Below the pieces are notes generated by a model. The model saw only the letters and a program-made list of their open reading frames with translations, was not told where the DNA came from and made no database searches. Shown piece after piece: positions 2,074-61,920 of a stretch of DNA of 64,000 bases. Source of the stretch: Bacilli bacterium (GTDB lineage: Bacteria; Bacillota_I; Bacilli_A; RFN20; CAG-826); the NCBI GenBank assembly GCA_051872395.1, contig JBJEDU010000032.1, positions 502-64,501 of the forward strand. The letters are read 5' to 3'. The position numbers were made by a program, and so were the translations under genes. Each line of letters opens with the position of its first letter. The stretch's first letter is position 1.

Positions 2074-4840
2074 ACTTAAAAATATTAACTTATCTTTTCT
2101 TAATCAATGCATTTTTTCAAATGCTTCAATCACTCTTCCTAATAAAGGTTTGTATTTCGTTTTAGGTCCTTCAGGATGTGGGAAGTCCAGTTTTTTACAT
2201 CTATTATGTGGATTATTAAAATATCAAGGCAATATCAAAATAAATGGAAATAATATTTCATCCTTTTCAAAGACGCAAATGGATGATTTTCGCCTTAAAA
2301 ATATCGGATTAGTTTTTCAAGATTATAAATTACTATCTTATTTGAGTGTTTATGAAAATATCGTTCTTCCGTTAAGTGGGTCGAATTTAACTGATTCGAT
2401 AAAACTAACTAAGGCAAAATCGCTATTATCGTATGTTGGATTAAATAATTATTTAAATAAAACTATAAATGAACTTAGTGGTGGAGAAGCTCAAAGAGTG
2501 GCTTTAGCACGTTCTTTAATTAATTCTCCAAGCCTATTATTATGCGATGAACCAACTGGCTCTATCGATAAATTCAATCGTGATATCATCATGCAAATAT
2601 TAAAAAAATATTCACAAAATAATTTGGTGATTGTCGTTACTCATGACGAGAGTTTAATCGATCAATTTTGTGATGGTATTATATATATTAAAAATCACAA
2701 ATTTATATTAAAAAAGTTCGTTAAAAAGAAAGAAAATCAAAAGCTTCTTCTCGATAACAATAATGGTTTTTCTTTTAAAGGTTCATTGAGTCTTAAAGTA
2801 TTGAGAAAAATATATAAAAGTAAAAATAATAAAAGAAAAGTTCAAACATTTTTTATTCGTGGTTTTACTTCATTAGGTATTTTAGGGGTTGGTGTTTCTT
2901 TACTTTTATCTTCTTTTATTTCAACTTCGATAAAAAAATCGTATTCAGAAATACTTTTAGATAATGAAATTATTATGAATAAAAATATTAAAAATAGTGA
3001 ATATGTATCTTCTTTAAATGAAGAAGAAGCATTATCAAAAATTATCGATTATCGAGATTATATTAAAGATATTGGTATTTGCTATTTGAATGATTTTTCT
3101 TCATTTTTCTCTACTTCATATTTTTATTTGAATTCTTCGTCGAGTAAAAAACAAATAATCGATGATTTATCTATTCAACATATCAATGATTTTTTATGGC
3201 TTGATAATTATCCTTTTCTTAATGTTTATCCTTCCAAACCATCAACCCTTCAAGATGATGAAATTATTTTAGGGGCTTCAATTAACACTATTCGTCAATT
3301 ATGTTTATTTTTAGGAATTCCAAGAAACATTTCTTCCTTGTCATATTATTTAAAAAATAACGATTTATATATTTCTTTATTAGCCATCAATGAATCATGG
3401 TCTTATTATGATGAACAAATTTTTAAAGTCGTGGGGTTTTCTTTAGAAAAAAGCAATGTCATATATCACTATAATCATCGTTATAATGAATATATTTTGC
3501 AAACGCGAATGCGATTTGATTCCGTTTATGATATTAACAAAGAGACATATTATCCTTGGACATTAAAAAAGGCCATCTATTATGAAATTGAAGATTACGA
3601 TAATTTCTTGAATAAATCATTTTATGATCCAACTTTTGATGATGTTTATTTAGATAGAAACAAAGAATATTATTTTCCTTCGATATTTAAAAATTTAAAT
3701 AACGAATCTCAAAGTCGATTTCTATTATTTTTTAAGGATAAAGAAAAATTAAAAAGTCGATTAGATTCAATTATAAAAAGTACATCAAATAAAATTAATG
3801 ATGTTTATTTTATGAGCGATAAAGGATATACGGTTTATTCTTCTAGTTTAATGAAAGGTTTTTATTATCCTTTTTTCTTTTCTTTTAATAAAGAAAAATT
3901 AGAATCCGCGGTTGATATTGATTCGCAAAATGATGACATCAATACTATTTCATTATTCGATGAAGTGATTAAAGGTCATTATACGTTAAGTAAAAGTGAA
4001 GGAGTGTTTTTTAAATCAACTGATGAAGTTGATATTGGTCGGCTTCCTCAAAATTATGATGAAATCATTGTTTCTTCCTCATTTTTAAAGAAATTAAATA
4101 TGCCAAATGATAAAGTTCCAAGCGAACCACTTCTTCTTGCAGTTAACAATAAGACAACATATTTAAGTGAGAGCAGTGTTAATAAAGAATACGTTTATTT
4201 GAATTTAAAAGTGACAGGAATTAAAAACTCTTCTTTATTTAACATTTATCAAAATCCGAATTGGTTAATTATTTTCTTTCAAACACGATTGAATGTTTCG
4301 ATTTTTGATTTAGATATTTCTAGTTTTTTAATCGAAGGAAAATCTGGAAAAGATATGAAAGATATCAAAGAAATATTAATGAAAACTTTTCCTTCATTTA
4401 CTTTTTCTTCACCATTATTAGATATTAATGAAAGTGTCAATAATACAATGAAGTATATCGAACTAATTATTTTATGTTTTTCTCTTGTAAGTTTATCTAT
4501 TTCTTTACTTTTATATTCTTTGAGTTTAGATATCACTTTGGAAGAGAGTAAAAAAGATATATCTTTAATTCGTTGTTTAGGTTTTCCTAATCTTGAATCG
4601 GTAAAAATTGTCTTTTTTAATTCTTTAGCTTTTTCCTTGACGAGTTTCTTTGTGAGTAGTTTCGAATTAATAATGTTTTCTTTTGTCTATTCTTTTGTAT
4701 TAAATGTTGATTTCTTTTCGCTTTTAAAAATTAGACCATTTATCTATATGTTAATTATTTCTATTTTGATAGCGTTTTTCTCATCGCTTCTCAACATTAA
4801 AAAAGTTATGAGAATGGATATTTTACAAGCCAGTCAATAA
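2066..4840 (+). CDS. Fused ABC ATP-binding / FtsX-like permease (924 aa). Paralogous partner of the upstream gene.
   Basis: GPSGCGKSS Walker A, LSGGEAQRVALARSL signature, LLLCDEPTGSID Walker B, VTHD H-loop. It has a long extracytoplasmic domain and C-terminal TM helices. Its ATG overlaps the upstream stop by 8 nt (ATGATTGA), which indicates translational coupling. Confidence 0.85.
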   Translation: MIELKNINLSFLNQCIFSNASITLPNKGLYFVLGPSGCGKSSFLHLLCGLLKYQGNIKINGNNISSFSKTQMDDFRLKNIGLVFQDYKLLSYLSVYENIVLPLSGSNLTDSIKLTKAKSLLSYVGLNNYLNKTINELSGGEAQRVALARSLINSPSLLLCDEPTGSIDKFNRDIIMQILKKYSQNNLVIVVTHDESLIDQFCDGIIYIKNHKFILKKFVKKKENQKLLLDNNNGFSFKGSLSLKVLRKIYKSKNNKRKVQTFFIRGFTSLGILGVGVSLLLSSFISTSIKKSYSEILLDNEIIMNKNIKNSEYVSSLNEEEALSKIIDYRDYIKDIGICYLNDFSSFFSTSYFYLNSSSSKKQIIDDLSIQHINDFLWLDNYPFLNVYPSKPSTLQDDEIILGASINTIRQLCLFLGIPRNISSLSYYLKNNDLYISLLAINESWSYYDEQIFKVVGFSLEKSNVIYHYNHRYNEYILQTRMRFDSVYDINKETYYPWTLKKAIYYEIEDYDNFLNKSFYDPTFDDVYLDRNKEYYFPSIFKNLNNESQSRFLLFFKDKEKLKSRLDSIIKSTSNKINDVYFMSDKGYTVYSSSLMKGFYYPFFFSFNKEKLESAVDIDSQNDDINTISLFDEVIKGHYTLSKSEGVFFKSTDEVDIGRLPQNYDEIIVSSSFLKKLNMPNDKVPSEPLLLAVNNKTTYLSESSVNKEYVYLNLKVTGIKNSSLFNIYQNPNWLIIFFQTRLNVSIFDLDISSFLIEGKSGKDMKDIKEILMKTFPSFTFSSPLLDINESVNNTMKYIELIILCFSLVSLSISLLLYSLSLDITLEESKKDISLIRCLGFPNLESVKIVFFNSLAFSLTSFFVSSFELIMFSFVYSFVLNVDFFSLLKIRPFIYMLIISILIAFFSSLLNIKKVMRMDILQASQ

Positions 4841-12050: not shown

Positions 12051-12127
12051 TGGCGCGCTCAGCAAGACTCGAACTCGCAACCTTCAGATTCGAAGTCTGA
12101 CATTCTATCCGATTGAATTATGAGCGC
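12051..12127 (-). tRNA. tRNA-Arg (anticodon TCG)
   Basis: 77-nt cloverleaf read on the minus strand: GCGCTCA...CUUCGAA anticodon loop...TGAGCGC-G-CCA. CCA is encoded. Confidence 0.85.
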
Positions 12128-12151
12128 ATATATAAATTTTTGTTTTTTCTT

Positions 12152-12226
12152 TGGCTGGGGTAAGTGGATTCGGACCACTGCATACCAGTTTCAGAGACTA
12201 GTGCCTTACCGCTTGGCGATACCCCA
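12152..12226 (-). tRNA. tRNA-Gln (anticodon CTG)
   Basis: UGGGGUA acceptor stem, anticodon loop CUCUGAA, G73, encoded CCA. Resembles bacterial tRNA-Gln. Confidence 0.8.
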
Positions 12227-19886: not shown

Positions 19887-19975
19887 TGGTGCCCGGAACC
19901 GGAATCGAACCGGTATGGAATTTTACTTCCGCAGGATTTTAAGTCCTGTGCGTCTACCTATTCCGCCACCCGGGC
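19887..19975 (-). tRNA. tRNA-Leu (anticodon TAA)
   Basis: GCCCGGG acceptor, anticodon loop CUUAAAA, long variable arm, encoded CCA. Confidence 0.85.
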
Positions 19976-19986
19976 ATAGACGATTT

Positions 19987-20062
19987 TGGTCTCCCGTAGA
20001 AGATTCGAACTTCTGACCCCTTGATTAAAAGTCAAGTGCTCTACCGACTGAGCTAACGGGAG
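19987..20062 (-). tRNA. tRNA-Lys (anticodon TTT)
   Basis: Anticodon loop CUUUUAA, T-loop TTCGAAT, encoded CCA. Confidence 0.85.
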
Positions 20063-20071
20063 GAATAACAT

Positions 20072-20147
20072 TGGCTGGGGTGGGTGGGATCGAACCACCG
20101 AGATGACAGAGTCAAAGTCTGTTGCCTTACCTCTTGGCTACACCCCA
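20072..20147 (-). tRNA. tRNA-Gln (anticodon TTG)
   Basis: UGGGGUG acceptor, anticodon loop CUUUGAC, encoded CCA. Confidence 0.85.
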
Positions 20148-20155
20148 ACAAGGTT

Positions 20156-20239
20156 TGGTGGAGGGGGGCAGATTCGAACCGCCGAACCCGAAGGAGCTGA
20201 TTTACAGTCAGCCGCGTTTAGCCTCTTCGCTACCCCTCC
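20156..20239 (-). tRNA. tRNA-Tyr (anticodon GTA)
   Basis: GGAGGGG acceptor, anticodon loop CUGUAAA, long variable arm, encoded CCA. Confidence 0.85.
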
Positions 20240-20267
20240 AAATAGAACTTCCGTATAAGAGCATTAC

Positions 20268-20343
20268 TGGTGGATGCTGAGGGGCTCGAACCCCCGACCT
20301 CCGCCGTGTAAAGGCGATGCTCTCCCAGCTGAGCTAAGCATCC
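20268..20343 (-). tRNA. tRNA-Val (anticodon TAC)
   Basis: GGAUGCU acceptor, anticodon loop UUUACAC, encoded CCA. Confidence 0.85.
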
Positions 20344-28788: not shown

Positions 28789-28872
28789 TGGTGCGCGAGA
28801 TGAGACTTGAACTCACACGATGTTAGTCATACGCCCCTCAAACGTACGCGTCTACCATTCCGCCACTCGCGC
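28789..28872 (-). tRNA. tRNA-Leu (anticodon GAG)
   Basis: GCGCGAG acceptor, anticodon stem UACGU/GCGUA with loop UUGAGGG, long variable arm, encoded CCA. Confidence 0.8.
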
Positions 28873-35071: not shown

Positions 35072-35353
35072 ATGAAAGAAATAACTTTATATCCACAATT
35101 TGTGTGTTCAAGACAAATTGATATTGTTGTTGATGATGATAATGTCATTCAATCAATGAAGTTTTTACGAGGCTGTTCTGGAAATCTTCAAGGAATCTCT
35201 CGTCTTTGTATCGGACATAAATTAGAAGAAGTTTCTTCTATTTTAGAAGGCATCAGATGTCCGGGTAGTCGAACTGGTGAAACTAGTTGTCCGGATCAAT
35301 TAGCAAAAAGAATCAATGAATATTTAAAAACTAATATTGATACAAAAAATTAA
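35072..35353 (+). CDS. TSCPD-domain protein
   Basis: Literal TSCPD signature GETSCPDQ plus conserved Cys residues (CSGNLQG, RLCIGH, RCPGSRTG). 93 aa. Confidence 0.8.
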   Translation: MKEITLYPQFVCSRQIDIVVDDDNVIQSMKFLRGCSGNLQGISRLCIGHKLEEVSSILEGIRCPGSRTGETSCPDQLAKRINEYLKTNIDTKN

Positions 35354-35374
35354 TACTATATAATATAAGGCAGT

Positions 35375-35496
35375 TATATATCTTATCAAGAATCGCGAAA
35401 AGAAGATGTAAAATCGCGATAGCAACTCTTATATAAAAATAAGTAAGTGCTCTCTTCAGCGGATTTATCCGAACGATAAGTTAGGAATAATTAATA
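35375..35496 (+). promoter_or_regulatory. S-box (SAM-I)-like riboswitch aptamer upstream of metK, a minimised variant
   Basis: The P1 arms CTTATCAAGA (35382) and GATAAG (35475) enclose AGCAAC (compare GGCAACC), GTGC and CAGCGGA, which is the conserved SAM-I J4/1 GUGC...GCAGCGGAAA. The canonical GGGA/GCCC P3 helix is absent. Confidence 0.55.
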
Positions 35497-35526
35497 AACC
35501 TTCCTGACTTTGGGAAGGTTTTTTAA
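35497..35526 (+). terminator. Leader terminator (riboswitch expression platform) upstream of metK
   Basis: AACCTTCC-TGACTTT-GGGAAGGTT hairpin followed by TTTTTT, 24 nt before the metK ATG. Confidence 0.75.
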
Positions 35527-35549
35527 ATGAGAAAGGAAATTACATCGTT

Positions 35550-36728
35550 ATGGAAAAACAAAAAATATTATTTACTTCTGAATCAGTATCAGAAGGACAC
35601 CCTGATAAAGTATGCGATCAAATCGCTGATGAAATTTTAGATAGATTTTTATCTCAAGACCCTTCAAGTCATGTCGCTATCGAAGTATTTGCTAGTGAAA
35701 ATTTTGTTCTTGTCGGTGGAGAATATTTATCAAAAGGAACAGTCGATATTGAGCAAACAGTCAAAGATGTTTTAAAACGAATTGGTTATGATAAAGAAGA
35801 ATTAGGCACTGATTATCATACTGTAACAGTCTTGAATAAAACTAAACCACAATCAGGGGAAATTAATAACGCTGTAAAGAATTTAAAAGATGAAGATTTA
35901 GGAGCCGGTGATCAAGGTATCATGTTTGGTTATGCGACTGATGAAAGCGAAGGCTTTATGCCTTTAGCGATTTCTTTAGCTCATAAGTTAGTGCGTGAAG
36001 CTACCAAACAAAGAAAAGAAGGAAAGTTTTTACATGCTCGTCCTGATATGAAATCACAAGTTACTATCGATTACACTGATACTAATTGTATTAGAATTGA
36101 TAATATTTTAATGTCTTGTCAACATGACGATAATATAAATCTCGATGAATTCAAAAAATATATTCATGATAATATCATGGTTAAAGTAGCAAAATCTTTT
36201 AATTTAAATGATGATTTTACTTATTTAATCAATCCTTCAGGTTCGTTTATTTTAGGCGGTCCAAGTGGTGACACTGGCGTGACTGGAAGAAAAATTATTG
36301 TCGATACTTATGGAGGATACGCTGAACATGGTGGTGGGGCTTTTTCTGGAAAAGATCCAACAAAAGTTGATAGAAGCGCTACTTATATGGCACGTTATAT
36401 TGCTAAAAATTTAGTAGCAGCAGGGGTGAGTAAACGACTTCTTGTTCAATTATCCTACGCGATTGGTTTATCTCATCCTTTGTCAATAAGCGTTAAAACT
36501 TATCACACTTCAAATTATAATGACGATGTCATTTTAGATATTATTAATAAAGTTTTTGATTTAAGACCTGGAATGATAATTAAAAATTTCTCACTCAACA
36601 AACCTTCTTTTAAGTATGCTGAGTTATGTAATTATGGTCATTTTGGTCGTCCAGATTTAATTCTTCCATGGGAAAAATTAGATAAGGTCGAAGAAATTAA
36701 AAAGCTTTTAAATGAAAGCAAAAAGTAA
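35550..36728 (+). CDS. metK: S-adenosylmethionine synthetase
   Basis: MetK motifs FTSESVSEGHPDKVCDQIAD, GAGDQG and DTYGG. 392 aa. Confidence 0.97.
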   Translation: MEKQKILFTSESVSEGHPDKVCDQIADEILDRFLSQDPSSHVAIEVFASENFVLVGGEYLSKGTVDIEQTVKDVLKRIGYDKEELGTDYHTVTVLNKTKPQSGEINNAVKNLKDEDLGAGDQGIMFGYATDESEGFMPLAISLAHKLVREATKQRKEGKFLHARPDMKSQVTIDYTDTNCIRIDNILMSCQHDDNINLDEFKKYIHDNIMVKVAKSFNLNDDFTYLINPSGSFILGGPSGDTGVTGRKIIVDTYGGYAEHGGGAFSGKDPTKVDRSATYMARYIAKNLVAAGVSKRLLVQLSYAIGLSHPLSISVKTYHTSNYNDDVILDIINKVFDLRPGMIIKNFSLNKPSFKYAELCNYGHFGRPDLILPWEKLDKVEEIKKLLNESKK

Positions 36729-52623: not shown

Positions 52624-52727
52624 ACAAACGCTATGCATGGTTCCTTAGCCAAGTTGGTAAGGCAGTTGACTGCAACTCAACGAGCATCGGTTCGAATCCG
52701 GTAGGAACCTCCAAACATAGCGTTTGT
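52624..52727. repeat. Perfect 12-bp inverted repeat bracketing tRNA-Cys
   Basis: ACAAACGCTATG (52624–52635) and CATAGCGTTTGT (52716–52727) can form a long-range stem enclosing the tRNA. Confidence 0.7.
52639..52713 (+). tRNA. tRNA-Cys (anticodon GCA)
   Basis: Anticodon loop CUGCAAC, U73 discriminator, encoded CCA. Confidence 0.85.
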
Positions 52728-52734
52728 GATTATT

Positions 52735-52811
52735 GCGCCTTTAGCTCAACTGGATAGAGTGTCAGACTACGAATCTGGAGGTTGCGAGTTCGATTCTTGC
52801 AAGGCGCGCCA
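52735..52811 (+). tRNA. tRNA-Arg (anticodon ACG)
   Basis: Anticodon loop CUACGAA, encoded CCA. Confidence 0.9.
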
Positions 52812-52821
52812 ATTAATTTAT

Positions 52822-52899
52822 CGGGATGTAGCGTAGCTTGGTTATCGCGTCTGCTTTGGGAGCAGGAGGTCGTGAGTTCGAATCTCACCATCCCGACCA
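52822..52899 (+). tRNA. tRNA-Pro (anticodon TGG)
   Basis: CGGGAUG acceptor, anticodon loop UUUGGGA, encoded CCA. Confidence 0.85.
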
Positions 52900-52909
52900 T
52901 TATTTATTT

Positions 52910-52985
52910 GGGGCTATAGCTCAGTTGGAAGAGCGTCTGATTTGCATTCAGAAGGTCGAGAGTTCGAATCTCTTTAGCTCCACCA
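52910..52985 (+). tRNA. tRNA-Ala (anticodon TGC)
   Basis: GGGGCUA acceptor with the G3:U70 identity pair, anticodon loop UUUGCAU, encoded CCA. Confidence 0.9.
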
Positions 52986-52996
52986 AAAATGTATAT

Positions 52997-53073
52997 GGCT
53001 GCGTAGCTCAGTTGGCTAGAGCGTTCGGTTCATACCCGATAGGTCGAGAGTTCAAGTCTCCCCGCAGCTACCA
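52997..53073 (+). tRNA. tRNA-Met elongator (anticodon CAT)
   Basis: Anticodon arm UCGGUUCAUACCCGA and overall architecture match Firmicute elongator tRNA-Met. Encoded CCA. Confidence 0.75.
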
Positions 53074-53081
53074 TTTATTTT

Positions 53082-53158
53082 GGACCACTAGCTCAATTGG
53101 TCAGAGCATCTGGCTCATAACCGGCTGGTTTCGGGTTCAAGTCCTGAGTGGTCCACCA
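53082..53158 (+). tRNA. tRNA with CAT anticodon, probably tRNA-Ile2 (lysidine-modified)
   Basis: The GGACC...GGUCCACCA acceptor and CUCAUAA loop resemble Bacillus tRNA-Ile(CAU). It is not initiator-like: there is no C1xA72 mismatch and a U:G pair sits in the anticodon stem. Confidence 0.6.
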
Positions 53159-53161
53159 ATC

Positions 53162-53251
53162 GGAGGTGTACCCAAGTGGTTGAAGGGGTTGGTCTTGAAA
53201 ACCAATAGGGGCGAGTAACCCGCTAGAGTTCGAATCTCTATACCTCCGCCA
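53162..53251 (+). tRNA. tRNA-Ser (anticodon TGA)
   Basis: Long variable arm, anticodon loop CUUGAAA, G73, encoded CCA. Confidence 0.85.
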
Positions 53252-61843: not shown

Positions 61844-61920
61844 CGCGGGGTAGAGCAGTCTGGTAGCTCGTCGGGCCCATAACCCGGAGGCCATTGGTTC
61901 AAATCCATTCCCCGCAACCA
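61844..61920 (+). tRNA. Initiator tRNA-fMet (anticodon CAT)
   Basis: C1xA72 mismatch, three consecutive G:C pairs closing the anticodon loop (GGGCCCAUAACCC), encoded CCA. Confidence 0.9.

Follow-up and report, generated by a model that had tools for sequence, protein, structure and literature searches.

A probable SAM-I riboswitch with an unbroken P2 helix and no K-turn upstream of metK in a Bacilli bacterium

The K-turn of SAM-I (S-box) riboswitches is a textbook motif, held to be necessary for bringing the P2 loop to J3/4. A K-turn requires, between two helices, a bulge of 3 nt and then G.A and A.G pairs, and the canonical P2 of SAM-I contains a GA, then a GGG..CCC P2b helix, and then GAUGA. 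Together, the K-turn and P2b normally double P2 back and so place its loop at J3/4, and the resulting pseudoknot is about 4 nt long in canonical SAM-I. Barrick and Breaker stated that the K-turn is conserved in SAM-I aptamers, in contrast to some lysine riboswitch variants that lack it (PMC2258182), and Huang et al. analysed 4,755 SAM-I K-turn sequences with no mention of K-turn-less forms (PMC4914095). A pk-turn can take over the function of the K-turn in SAM-I despite having none of the sequence features of a K-turn (PMC4316175 and PMC3672288), and these substitution experiments indicate that the SAM-I fold tolerates alternative bending devices. SAM-I/IV riboswitches combine a SAM-I-like core with a P2 that has no internal loop (K-turn) (PMC2864571), the only known case of an unkinked P2 in the literature consulted, and SAM-IV riboswitches have P2 split into P2a and P2b, a P2 turn that is not a K-turn, no junction P4, and the additional elements P5 and PK-2 (PMC6890682). 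No description of a natural P4-bearing SAM-I riboswitch without a K-turn was found in the largely open-access literature searched.

In the window (the whole 64-kb stretch of Bacilli bacterium DNA analysed here), metK is preceded by a leader that we read, with a probability of roughly 0.85, as a genuine SAM-I (S-box) riboswitch exerting feedback on metK by transcription attenuation. A permissive scan of positions 35300-35600 (301 nt) matched RF00162 (SAM-I) at 35380-35482, covering model positions 1-108, with 47.1 bits and E = 5.5e-10; the gathering score of RF00162 is 44.4 bits, which the window copy exceeds by less than 3 bits and under relaxed filters only. A default Rfam scan of the whole 64-kb window returned 16 tRNAs and no SAM family. 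This negative was set aside as a filter artefact in 29% GC DNA (28.9% for the genome), because the permissive scan of the leader scored above the gathering threshold. RF00162 was the best clan match shown for the leader, with lower-scoring clan members masked in the output. In the alignment, the interior of P2 was the one part bypassed by the model, via a local end, and uppercase consensus nucleotides were matched in J1/2 (AAGA), in P3 (GCAAC...GUGC), and in the 3′ strand of P1 (GAUAAG). The first-pass annotation had described an S-box-type leader with a terminator upstream of metK and had suggested a search with covariance models. All of the sequence elements that it listed are present, RF00162 matched the leader end to end and far above chance expectation, and by Rfam's own score threshold the leader is a member of SAM-I rather than only S-box-like; its predicted SAM responsiveness gains support as well.

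The aptamer is composed of the following elements.

35380-35387, + strand: 5′ strand of P1 (AUCUUAUC), paired with 35475-35482; 4 of the 8 P1 pairs are changed on both sides in the family
35388-35391, + strand: J1/2, AAGA, with two reported SAM-contact positions (RF00162 columns 10 and 11); invariant in 17/17 sequences
35392-35420, + strand: P2, an unbroken 7-bp Watson-Crick helix (35392-35398 with 35414-35420) without K-turn or P2b
35399-35413, + strand: P2 loop, AAAGAAGAUGUAAAA, 15 nt
35402-35406, + strand: 5′ strand of the pseudoknot, the purine run GAAGA, in the P2 loop, paired with 35453-35457
35407-35413, + strand: 3′ linker of the loop, UGUAAAA; family consensus Y-G-W-A-A-N-A
35421-35451, + strand: P3; no variation in the pairs of the conserved AGCAAC...GUGCU base, covariation in the distal pairs (4 changed on both sides)
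35452-35459, + strand: J3/4, containing the 3′ strand of the pseudoknot
35453-35457, + strand: 3′ strand of the pseudoknot, UCUUC, in J3/4, where SAM-I forms its pseudoknot
35460-35471, + strand: P4, CGGA-UUUA-UCCG, a 4-bp hairpin; 4 of 5 P4 pairs covary in the family
35472-35474, + strand: J4/1, AAC
35475-35482, + strand: 3′ strand of P1 (GAUAAGUU), of which 35478-35482 is common to the antiterminator

A check of P1-P4 showed that all helix pairs in the window are standard. The core of P1 consists of CUUAUC (35382-35387) paired with GAUAAG (35475-35480), and the outer A35380-U35482 pair lies beyond a U-U mismatch. The core motifs AGCAAC, GUGC, and CAGCGGA are found at 35421-35426, 35447-35450, and 35457-35463, respectively, and the P3 loop, UAUAAAAA, is all A/U and has no specific downstream partner. 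The leader had initially been considered minimised, with only a short GCG...CGC helix where SAM-I has its P2/P3 core. That helix exists, as part of the 7-bp stem AUCGCGA (35392-35398)/UCGCGAU (35414-35420), and the GGUGGAGGGA...CCC K-turn/P2b module is indeed absent, in agreement with the proposed structural variant. However, P3 is present, and with P1, P3, P4, and the P2-loop:J3/4 pseudoknot all in place and covarying, the reduction is limited to the K-turn and P2b.

SAM-contact sites have been reported at RF00162 alignment positions 10, 11, 46, 47, and 103 (PMC12714719). The window reads A, G, A, A, and U at these positions, in full agreement with the consensus, and none of them varies among the 17 leaders of the family; the non-canonical SAM binding that had been suggested for the element therefore finds no support. 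By analogy with SAM-I, the pocket would be completed by the AGCAAC...GUGCU base of P3. Where a U-A pair between J3/4 and J4/1 has been published for SAM-I, the window has a U-C mismatch, so some tertiary layers differ from those of the published SAM-I, and the C in J4/1 is invariant in the family. Barrick and Breaker reported a long-range pair beside the pseudoknot; when it was looked for here by inspection, no consistent Watson-Crick partner was found for this C. A G35408-C35474 pair is conceivable; both positions are invariant, and hence there is no covariation signal either way.

The same design was found in 16 other metK leaders, from three Bacilli MAGs and thirteen metagenome contigs, and all 17 variant leaders lie directly upstream of metK. 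The nearest MetK proteins (72, 69, and 61% identity) are from uncultured Bacilli/Bacillales MAGs of animal guts (L001-L003), whose leaders have an unkinked P2, and the exact MetK of the window, with an identical leader, was present in two Logan SRA assemblies. In the next MetK tier (L004, L005, and L007; labelled Thomasclavelia, Stoquefichus, and, for L004, a 'Bacteroidaceae' bin), the leaders keep a textbook K-turn in AU-rich sequence (ACCAU-GA-GAU-GAAG-AUC-GAUGA-AGUGGU), and canonical leaders were found in more distant Clostridia. A gene-agnostic pattern scan of metagenome contigs gave 120 loci, 13 of which have the unkinked design. All 13 are directly upstream of metK, and no other target was found among them, although the scan was independent of the downstream gene; the other loci were canonical Bacteroidota-type SAM-I, SAM-I/IV-like elements, or chance matches. 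No second copy of the variant was found on any variant contig.

A covariance model (R1) was built from the 17 variant sequences and gave the following scores.

Variant members (training set): 79-113 bits
K-turn-bearing Erysipelotrichales-like leaders: 59-61 bits
Everything else: at most 51 bits

R1 thus separates the form cleanly, with members at 79 bits or more and all other sequences at 61 bits or less. The window scored 87.4 bits, partly by construction, as it is in the training set. In a filter-free R1 search of the window for further copies, only noise (at most 14.7 bits) was found beyond the real match. The RF00162 threshold of 44.4 bits was reached by none of the 11 relatives scanned; three of them scored 40.0 (L162), 38.7 (L003), and 36.1 bits (L110), and the remaining tested relatives were unreported at E <= 10 on 10-kb input.

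An alignment of orthologous leaders had been proposed by the first-pass annotation. The 17 sequences were aligned with MAFFT, and the fold proved to be kept with compensatory changes. Standard pairs occupied 94.7% of the alignment cells, and 24 of the 36 pairs were changed on both sides; J3/4 of the window was shifted by one column in this alignment, which slightly lowers the pair counts of the window. The observed covariation values were reached in 0 of 500 shuffles, a statistic that overstates independence because the 17 sequences are related, and sliding the partner columns by 1-3 positions reduced pairing to only 34-42%. Covariation was found in all four helices of the P1-P4 four-way junction. 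In P2, 98.3% of the cells were paired, with compensatory changes in 6 of 7 pairs. In the pseudoknot, all six pairs were changed on both sides, and relatives have AGAGAA:UUCUCU, AGGAA:UUCCU, and CUAGGC:GCCUAG. RNAalifold, run unguided, returned the same P1, unbroken P2, P3, and P4. In an alignment-free comparison of loop:J3/4 duplexes, the mean was -5.9 kcal/mol for cognate pairs, -2.9 when non-cognate partners were combined, and -3.4 ± 0.4 when the loops were shuffled. The pseudoknot of the window (5 bp, A/U-rich, -4.2 kcal/mol) would be unconvincing alone, without this family support. These compensatory changes support every predicted helix and the pseudoknot, and the number of distinct pair types is hard to explain without selection for pairing.

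The K-turn test of P2 was negative: the helix of 7 bp is unbroken, and an internal loop, P2b, and tandem G.A are all missing. Across the 17 sequences, no conserved GA was found on the 5′ strand of P2, and the 5′ linker is 1-5 nt long and variable in sequence. The position equivalent to A2b of the K-turn is U in 5 of the 17 sequences (the window and four relatives). A cryptic standard K-turn was rejected on these two grounds, the missing 5′-strand GA and the variable A2b-equivalent position. In the 3′ linker, at least 90% of the 17 sequences share G35408 and A35410, and A35413 is invariant; this linker is probably derived from the bulge strand of a K-turn. The P2 loop of the family measures 15-17 nt and its pseudoknot strand 5-6 nt, and the 7-bp stem approximates the length of canonical P2a plus the non-canonical layers of a K-turn. 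The longer pseudoknot may compensate for the lost P2b stack. The departure from the textbook SAM-I is peripheral: by score, core, junction, pseudoknot, and platform, the leader is SAM-I, and it fails the one feature, the K-turn, that the literature treats as constant. The leaders of L004, L005, and L007 look like the ancestral state, and alignment on the shared GAAGAU core suggests that a deletion of about 4 nt and a longer P2a, with non-canonical pairs converted to Watson-Crick pairs, gave rise to the form without a K-turn.

The putative promoter, the expression platform, and the target gene are arranged around the aptamer as follows.

35337-35364, + strand: predicted sigma-70-type promoter, TTGATA - 16 nt - TATAAT, with 11/12 consensus matches
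35478-35510, + strand: antiterminator, AAGUUAGGAA (35478-35487) paired with UUCCUGACUU (35501-35510), 10 bp, all pairs standard
35496-35521 (hairpin) and 35519-35524 (U run), + strand: intrinsic terminator, AAACCUUCCU/GGGAAGGUUU, 10 bp (35496-35505 with 35512-35521), loop GACUUU
35550-36728, + strand: metK, S-adenosylmethionine synthetase, 392 aa (PF00438, PF02772, and PF02773, E-values 5e-36 to 1e-61)

Transcription is predicted to start about 8-15 nt before P1. Four promoter-like sites were counted in the region, compared with 1.8 ± 1.8 in shuffles, and the promoter assignment is suggestive only, as AT-rich DNA commonly gives such matches. The ORFs upstream encode a TSCPD-domain protein (35072-35353) and a PduL-type protein, and a hibernation-promoting-factor gene follows metK. 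The hairpin of the terminator is G+C-rich, with a folding energy of -13.0 to -13.3 kcal/mol (RNAfold). A pattern scanner flagged this hairpin on the - strand only, because its stem extension on the + strand takes in three U's of the tail. The hairpin and U run had been recognised before the ATG in the first-pass annotation; the spacing, given there as 24 nt, is 25 nt after the U run (ATG at 35550). When the nascent transcript was folded up to the terminator loop, the antiterminator was the MFE structure (-9.7 kcal/mol). It uses 35478-35482, from the 3′ strand of P1, and 35501-35505, from the 5′ strand of the terminator, and therefore excludes both. A strong terminator ends 17/17 leaders, and an equivalent antiterminator is present in most. 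The energies of the competing states were calculated as follows.

P2, P3, and P4 plus antiterminator, transcript still lacking the terminator 3′ strand: -25.3 kcal/mol
P1-closed aptamer, transcript still lacking the terminator 3′ strand: -18.7 kcal/mol
Aptamer plus terminator, full length: -31.7 kcal/mol

P1 contributes only about -3 kcal/mol. In these calculations, the energies are those expected of an OFF switch under kinetic control.

The analysis shows directly the sequence anatomy, covariation in the helices and pseudoknot, a terminator and an antiterminator that exclude each other, and the position of the leader at metK. From these observations, we infer that SAM is bound, that the leader switches, and that the loop finds a path to J3/4 in three dimensions, and the following model is proposed. 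Transcription would start at the TTGATA/TATAAT promoter, and the leader would fold into the P1-P4 four-way junction, with a SAM pocket of canonical sequence enclosed by P1, J1/2, and the P3 base (AGCAAC/GUGC). The flexible linkers of the P2 loop (1-5 nt on the 5′ side, the conserved YGWAANA on the 3′ side) would present the longer pseudoknot strand of 5-6 nt. At high SAM, the ligand and the P2-loop:J3/4 pseudoknot would keep P1 closed and sequester AAGUU (35478-35482), leaving the terminator (hairpin at 35496-35521 and U run) free to form and to end transcription ahead of metK. At low SAM, P1 (about -3 kcal/mol) would be outcompeted by the 10-bp antiterminator (35478-35487 with 35501-35510), which covers the 5′ strand of the terminator, so that RNA polymerase would read into metK.

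Compared with SAM-I (RF00162), the element shares the P1-P4 four-way junction, AAGA in J1/2, AGCAAC...GUGC at the base of P3, GAU in the 3′ strand of P1, the P2-loop:J3/4 pseudoknot, an antiterminator overlapping the P1 3′ strand, the terminator, and the metK target. It differs from SAM-I in having one continuous 7-bp P2 with a loop of 15-17 nt in the family instead of a K-turn and P2b, a pseudoknot of 5-6 bp in the variant instead of about 4, and an unformed J3/4-J4/1 U-A pair, and its relatives of the same design, at 36-40 bits or unreported, lie outside the family as Rfam delimits it. With SAM-I/IV (RF01725), it has in common a P2 without an internal loop, and the SAM-I/IV examples L096, L099, and L115 from the metagenome scan have a 6-bp P2 and a loop of about 16 nt carrying the pseudoknot strand. 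However, in SAM-I/IV the junction contains no P4 and the P3 loop forms PK-2 with a 3′ tail, whereas the window has a covarying P4, an all-A/U P3 loop, and no PK-2 partner. SAM-IV (RF00634) belongs to the same clan and has a similar ligand core and a P2 without K-turn, but the window has no P2b, P5, or PK-2, has a junction P4, and carries after P1 no hairpins other than the antiterminator and terminator. Membership in SAM-I/IV or SAM-IV was rejected on account of the junction P4 and the lack of PK-2 and P5. The nearest K-turn-bearing relatives are the Erysipelotrichales-like leaders (L004, L005, and L007), which share AAGAA at J1/2-P2, the J4/1 C, a GAAGAU-like pseudoknot strand, and the style of terminator but have a textbook K-turn (GA ... 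GAUGAA), a 3-bp P2b, and RF00162 scores of 51-62 bits, a comfortable pass. The lysine riboswitch variants without a K-turn are a precedent for natural K-turn-less members, although in a different class with a different ligand (PMC2258182). The element is a mosaic of a SAM-I junction and a SAM-I/IV-style P2, and it performs an ordinary predicted function (a metK OFF switch, with SAM as the presumed ligand) with an architecture that is new within a known class.

Three other explanations were weighed against this reading. The leader could be an ordinary SAM-I that still forms a non-standard kink, being canonical in three dimensions and having lost only the sequence signature, for example through a complex K-turn or a pk-turn-like element in which the pseudoknot helix acts as the C-helix and G35408 and the A's of the 3′ linker are used. 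The resemblance of the linker consensus YGWAANA to the K-turn bulge strand GAUGAA of L004, L005, and L007 is in line with this idea, as is the ability of the pk-turn to substitute for the SAM-I K-turn without K-turn sequence features (PMC4316175 and PMC3672288). We nevertheless consider such a kink improbable, as the 5′ strand offers no conserved GA partner and has a linker of 1-5 nt with no fixed sequence, 5/17 leaders carry U at the A2b-equivalent position, and there is no P2b helix to serve as a C-stem inside P2.

A change in ligand recognition is rated as highly improbable. Here, the remodelled aptamer would bind SAM in a non-canonical way or sense a related metabolite such as SAH, and the peripheral remodelling together with the loss of the U-A tertiary pair (U-C here) could affect the pocket allosterically; aptamer variants with changed ligands are known in other SAM classes (PMC10853860). 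Against this, the five reported SAM-contact positions and the surrounding P1 and P3 base sequences match the consensus and are invariant in the 17 leaders, and the target is always metK, the classic SAM-feedback gene. We give the least credence to a decaying relic, in which a reduced genome would have lost the K-turn and with it the switching, leaving a constitutive attenuator or one that is read through. The very AT-rich genome (28.9% GC), the minimal 4-bp P4, and the marginal Rfam score would all suit decay, but the architecture is kept in 17 leaders even though the MetK proteins of the three measured relatives (L001-L003) are only 61-72% identical to that of the window, the antiterminator/terminator logic is retained, and compensatory changes in every helix and the pseudoknot are the signature of purifying selection on structure. 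A functional SAM-I riboswitch that has dispensed with the K-turn remains the preferred reading.

The biological role, SAM feedback on metK, is ordinary. For annotation, the result means that a SAM riboswitch form of an uncultured gut Bacilli clade, conserved and evidently under selection, is mostly invisible to the standard Rfam model, and riboswitch censuses would therefore undercount SAM regulation in reduced, AT-rich genomes. Natural sequences that have the pseudoknot but lack the K-turn provide a ready test of the part played by the K-turn in folding speed, Mg2+ dependence, and switching kinetics. The series from canonical leaders through the AU-rich K-turn of the Erysipelotrichales-like leaders to the K-turn-less form suggests a route from SAM-I to a SAM-I/IV-like unkinked P2. 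We tentatively propose, at a little less than even odds, that the 17 leaders constitute an undescribed structural subclass of the SAM-I clan, in which a four-way junction is combined with an unkinked P2, a longer pseudoknot and an A-rich linker replace the K-turn and P2b, and a P4-loop:terminator pairing is added in most members, the window not among them. If true, this would show that natural RNAs can assemble the SAM-I pocket without the K-turn.

A further observation concerns the P4 loop. In 15 of the 17 leaders (absent from the window and L001), this loop has the sequence CCCA(N), which duplicates the top of the terminator 5′ strand and is complementary to the loop-proximal part of the terminator 3′ strand. 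The P4-loop:terminator pairing covaries (CCCAUAA:UUAUGGG, CCCAGAA:UUCUGGG, and CCCACAA:UUGUGGG), and the cognate duplexes have a mean of -10.5 kcal/mol, compared with -5.9 ± 0.5 for shuffled loops. The P4 loop may aid antitermination by capturing the terminator 3′ strand, and if true, this pairing would be an undescribed extra layer of the expression platform.

In the metK leaders, comparison of the related loci revealed a CCCA(N) motif in the apical loop of P4; its complement lies at the top of the terminator 3' strand, in the loop-proximal part. This motif was carried by the leaders of L002, L003, L091, L107, L110, L113, L132, L137, L158, and L162, and by those of L184, L185, L188, L192, and L197. 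Among the metK leaders compared, it was absent from the window (P4 hairpin, 35460-35471) and from the related locus L001. The pairing between the P4 loop and the terminator covaries, with the combinations CCCAUAA:UUAUGGG, CCCAGAA:UUCUGGG, CCCACAA:UUGUGGG, and CCAC:GUGG. Furthermore, the cognate loop-terminator duplexes had a mean energy of -10.5 kcal/mol, compared with -5.9 +/- 0.5 kcal/mol for shuffled loops. This pairing may serve as a helper antiterminator or as a contact resembling PK-2, the second pseudoknot of SAM-I/IV and SAM-IV. With regard to the terminator hairpin of the window's own leader (35496-35521), the pattern scanner called it on the - strand only, with the tail ATTAATTATT. 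The hairpin is symmetric enough to be bidirectional in appearance, and no convergent gene was evident near it.

Other departures from canonical SAM-I were observed among the compared loci. The metK leader of a Eubacteriales MAG (L023, approximately 1380-1460) has a K-turn SAM-I core of the canonical kind; its J3/4 (AAUUCCUG) is directly continuous with the P1 3' strand (AAGAUGAG), and this core appears to be without any P4 hairpin. In L116, a SAM-I-like aptamer with P2b and a CUGG:CCAG pseudoknot lies at 3345-3450; the internal loop of its P2 (CGUA / UUUAUC) departs from the K-turn consensus, GA...GAUGA, and may be another K-turn replacement. The pattern scan also incidentally caught SAM-I/IV-like elements in L096, L099, L115, L118, L151, and L178. 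These elements have no junction P4, their P2 is 6 bp long with a loop of approximately 16 nt, and their P3 loop CCCACGAC is complementary to GUCGUGGG downstream.

The SAM-I aptamer at 35380-35482 was not reported when the whole window was scanned with Rfam at the default gathering threshold. Only in a scan of 301 nt with laxer filters did it match, at 47.1 bits versus a gathering score of 44.4, and the miss of an above-threshold SAM-I is a caution for AT-rich genomes. The Rfam scan of the window yielded 16 tRNA genes, which are listed below together with the gene preceding metK.

12054-12226, tRNA location
19890-20343, - strand, dense cluster of five tRNA genes
28792-28872, tRNA location
35072-35353, small stand-alone TSCPD-domain gene immediately upstream of metK
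52639-53248, + strand, dense cluster of seven tRNA genes
61844-61917, tRNA location

In translated sequence, a small stand-alone TSCPD gene was also found immediately upstream of metK in L001, L006, L009, L031, and L047, and in the last four it adjoins metK with no riboswitch leader in between. The window organism was absent from the GTDB species representatives, where the best MetK match was 72% identical. The exact window MetK protein was present in two independent SRA assemblies (L201 and L202; Logan SRR30616792 and SRR30616803), in which the 253-nt leader was 100% identical to that of the window and the gene order PduL-TSCPD-metK-HPF was the same.
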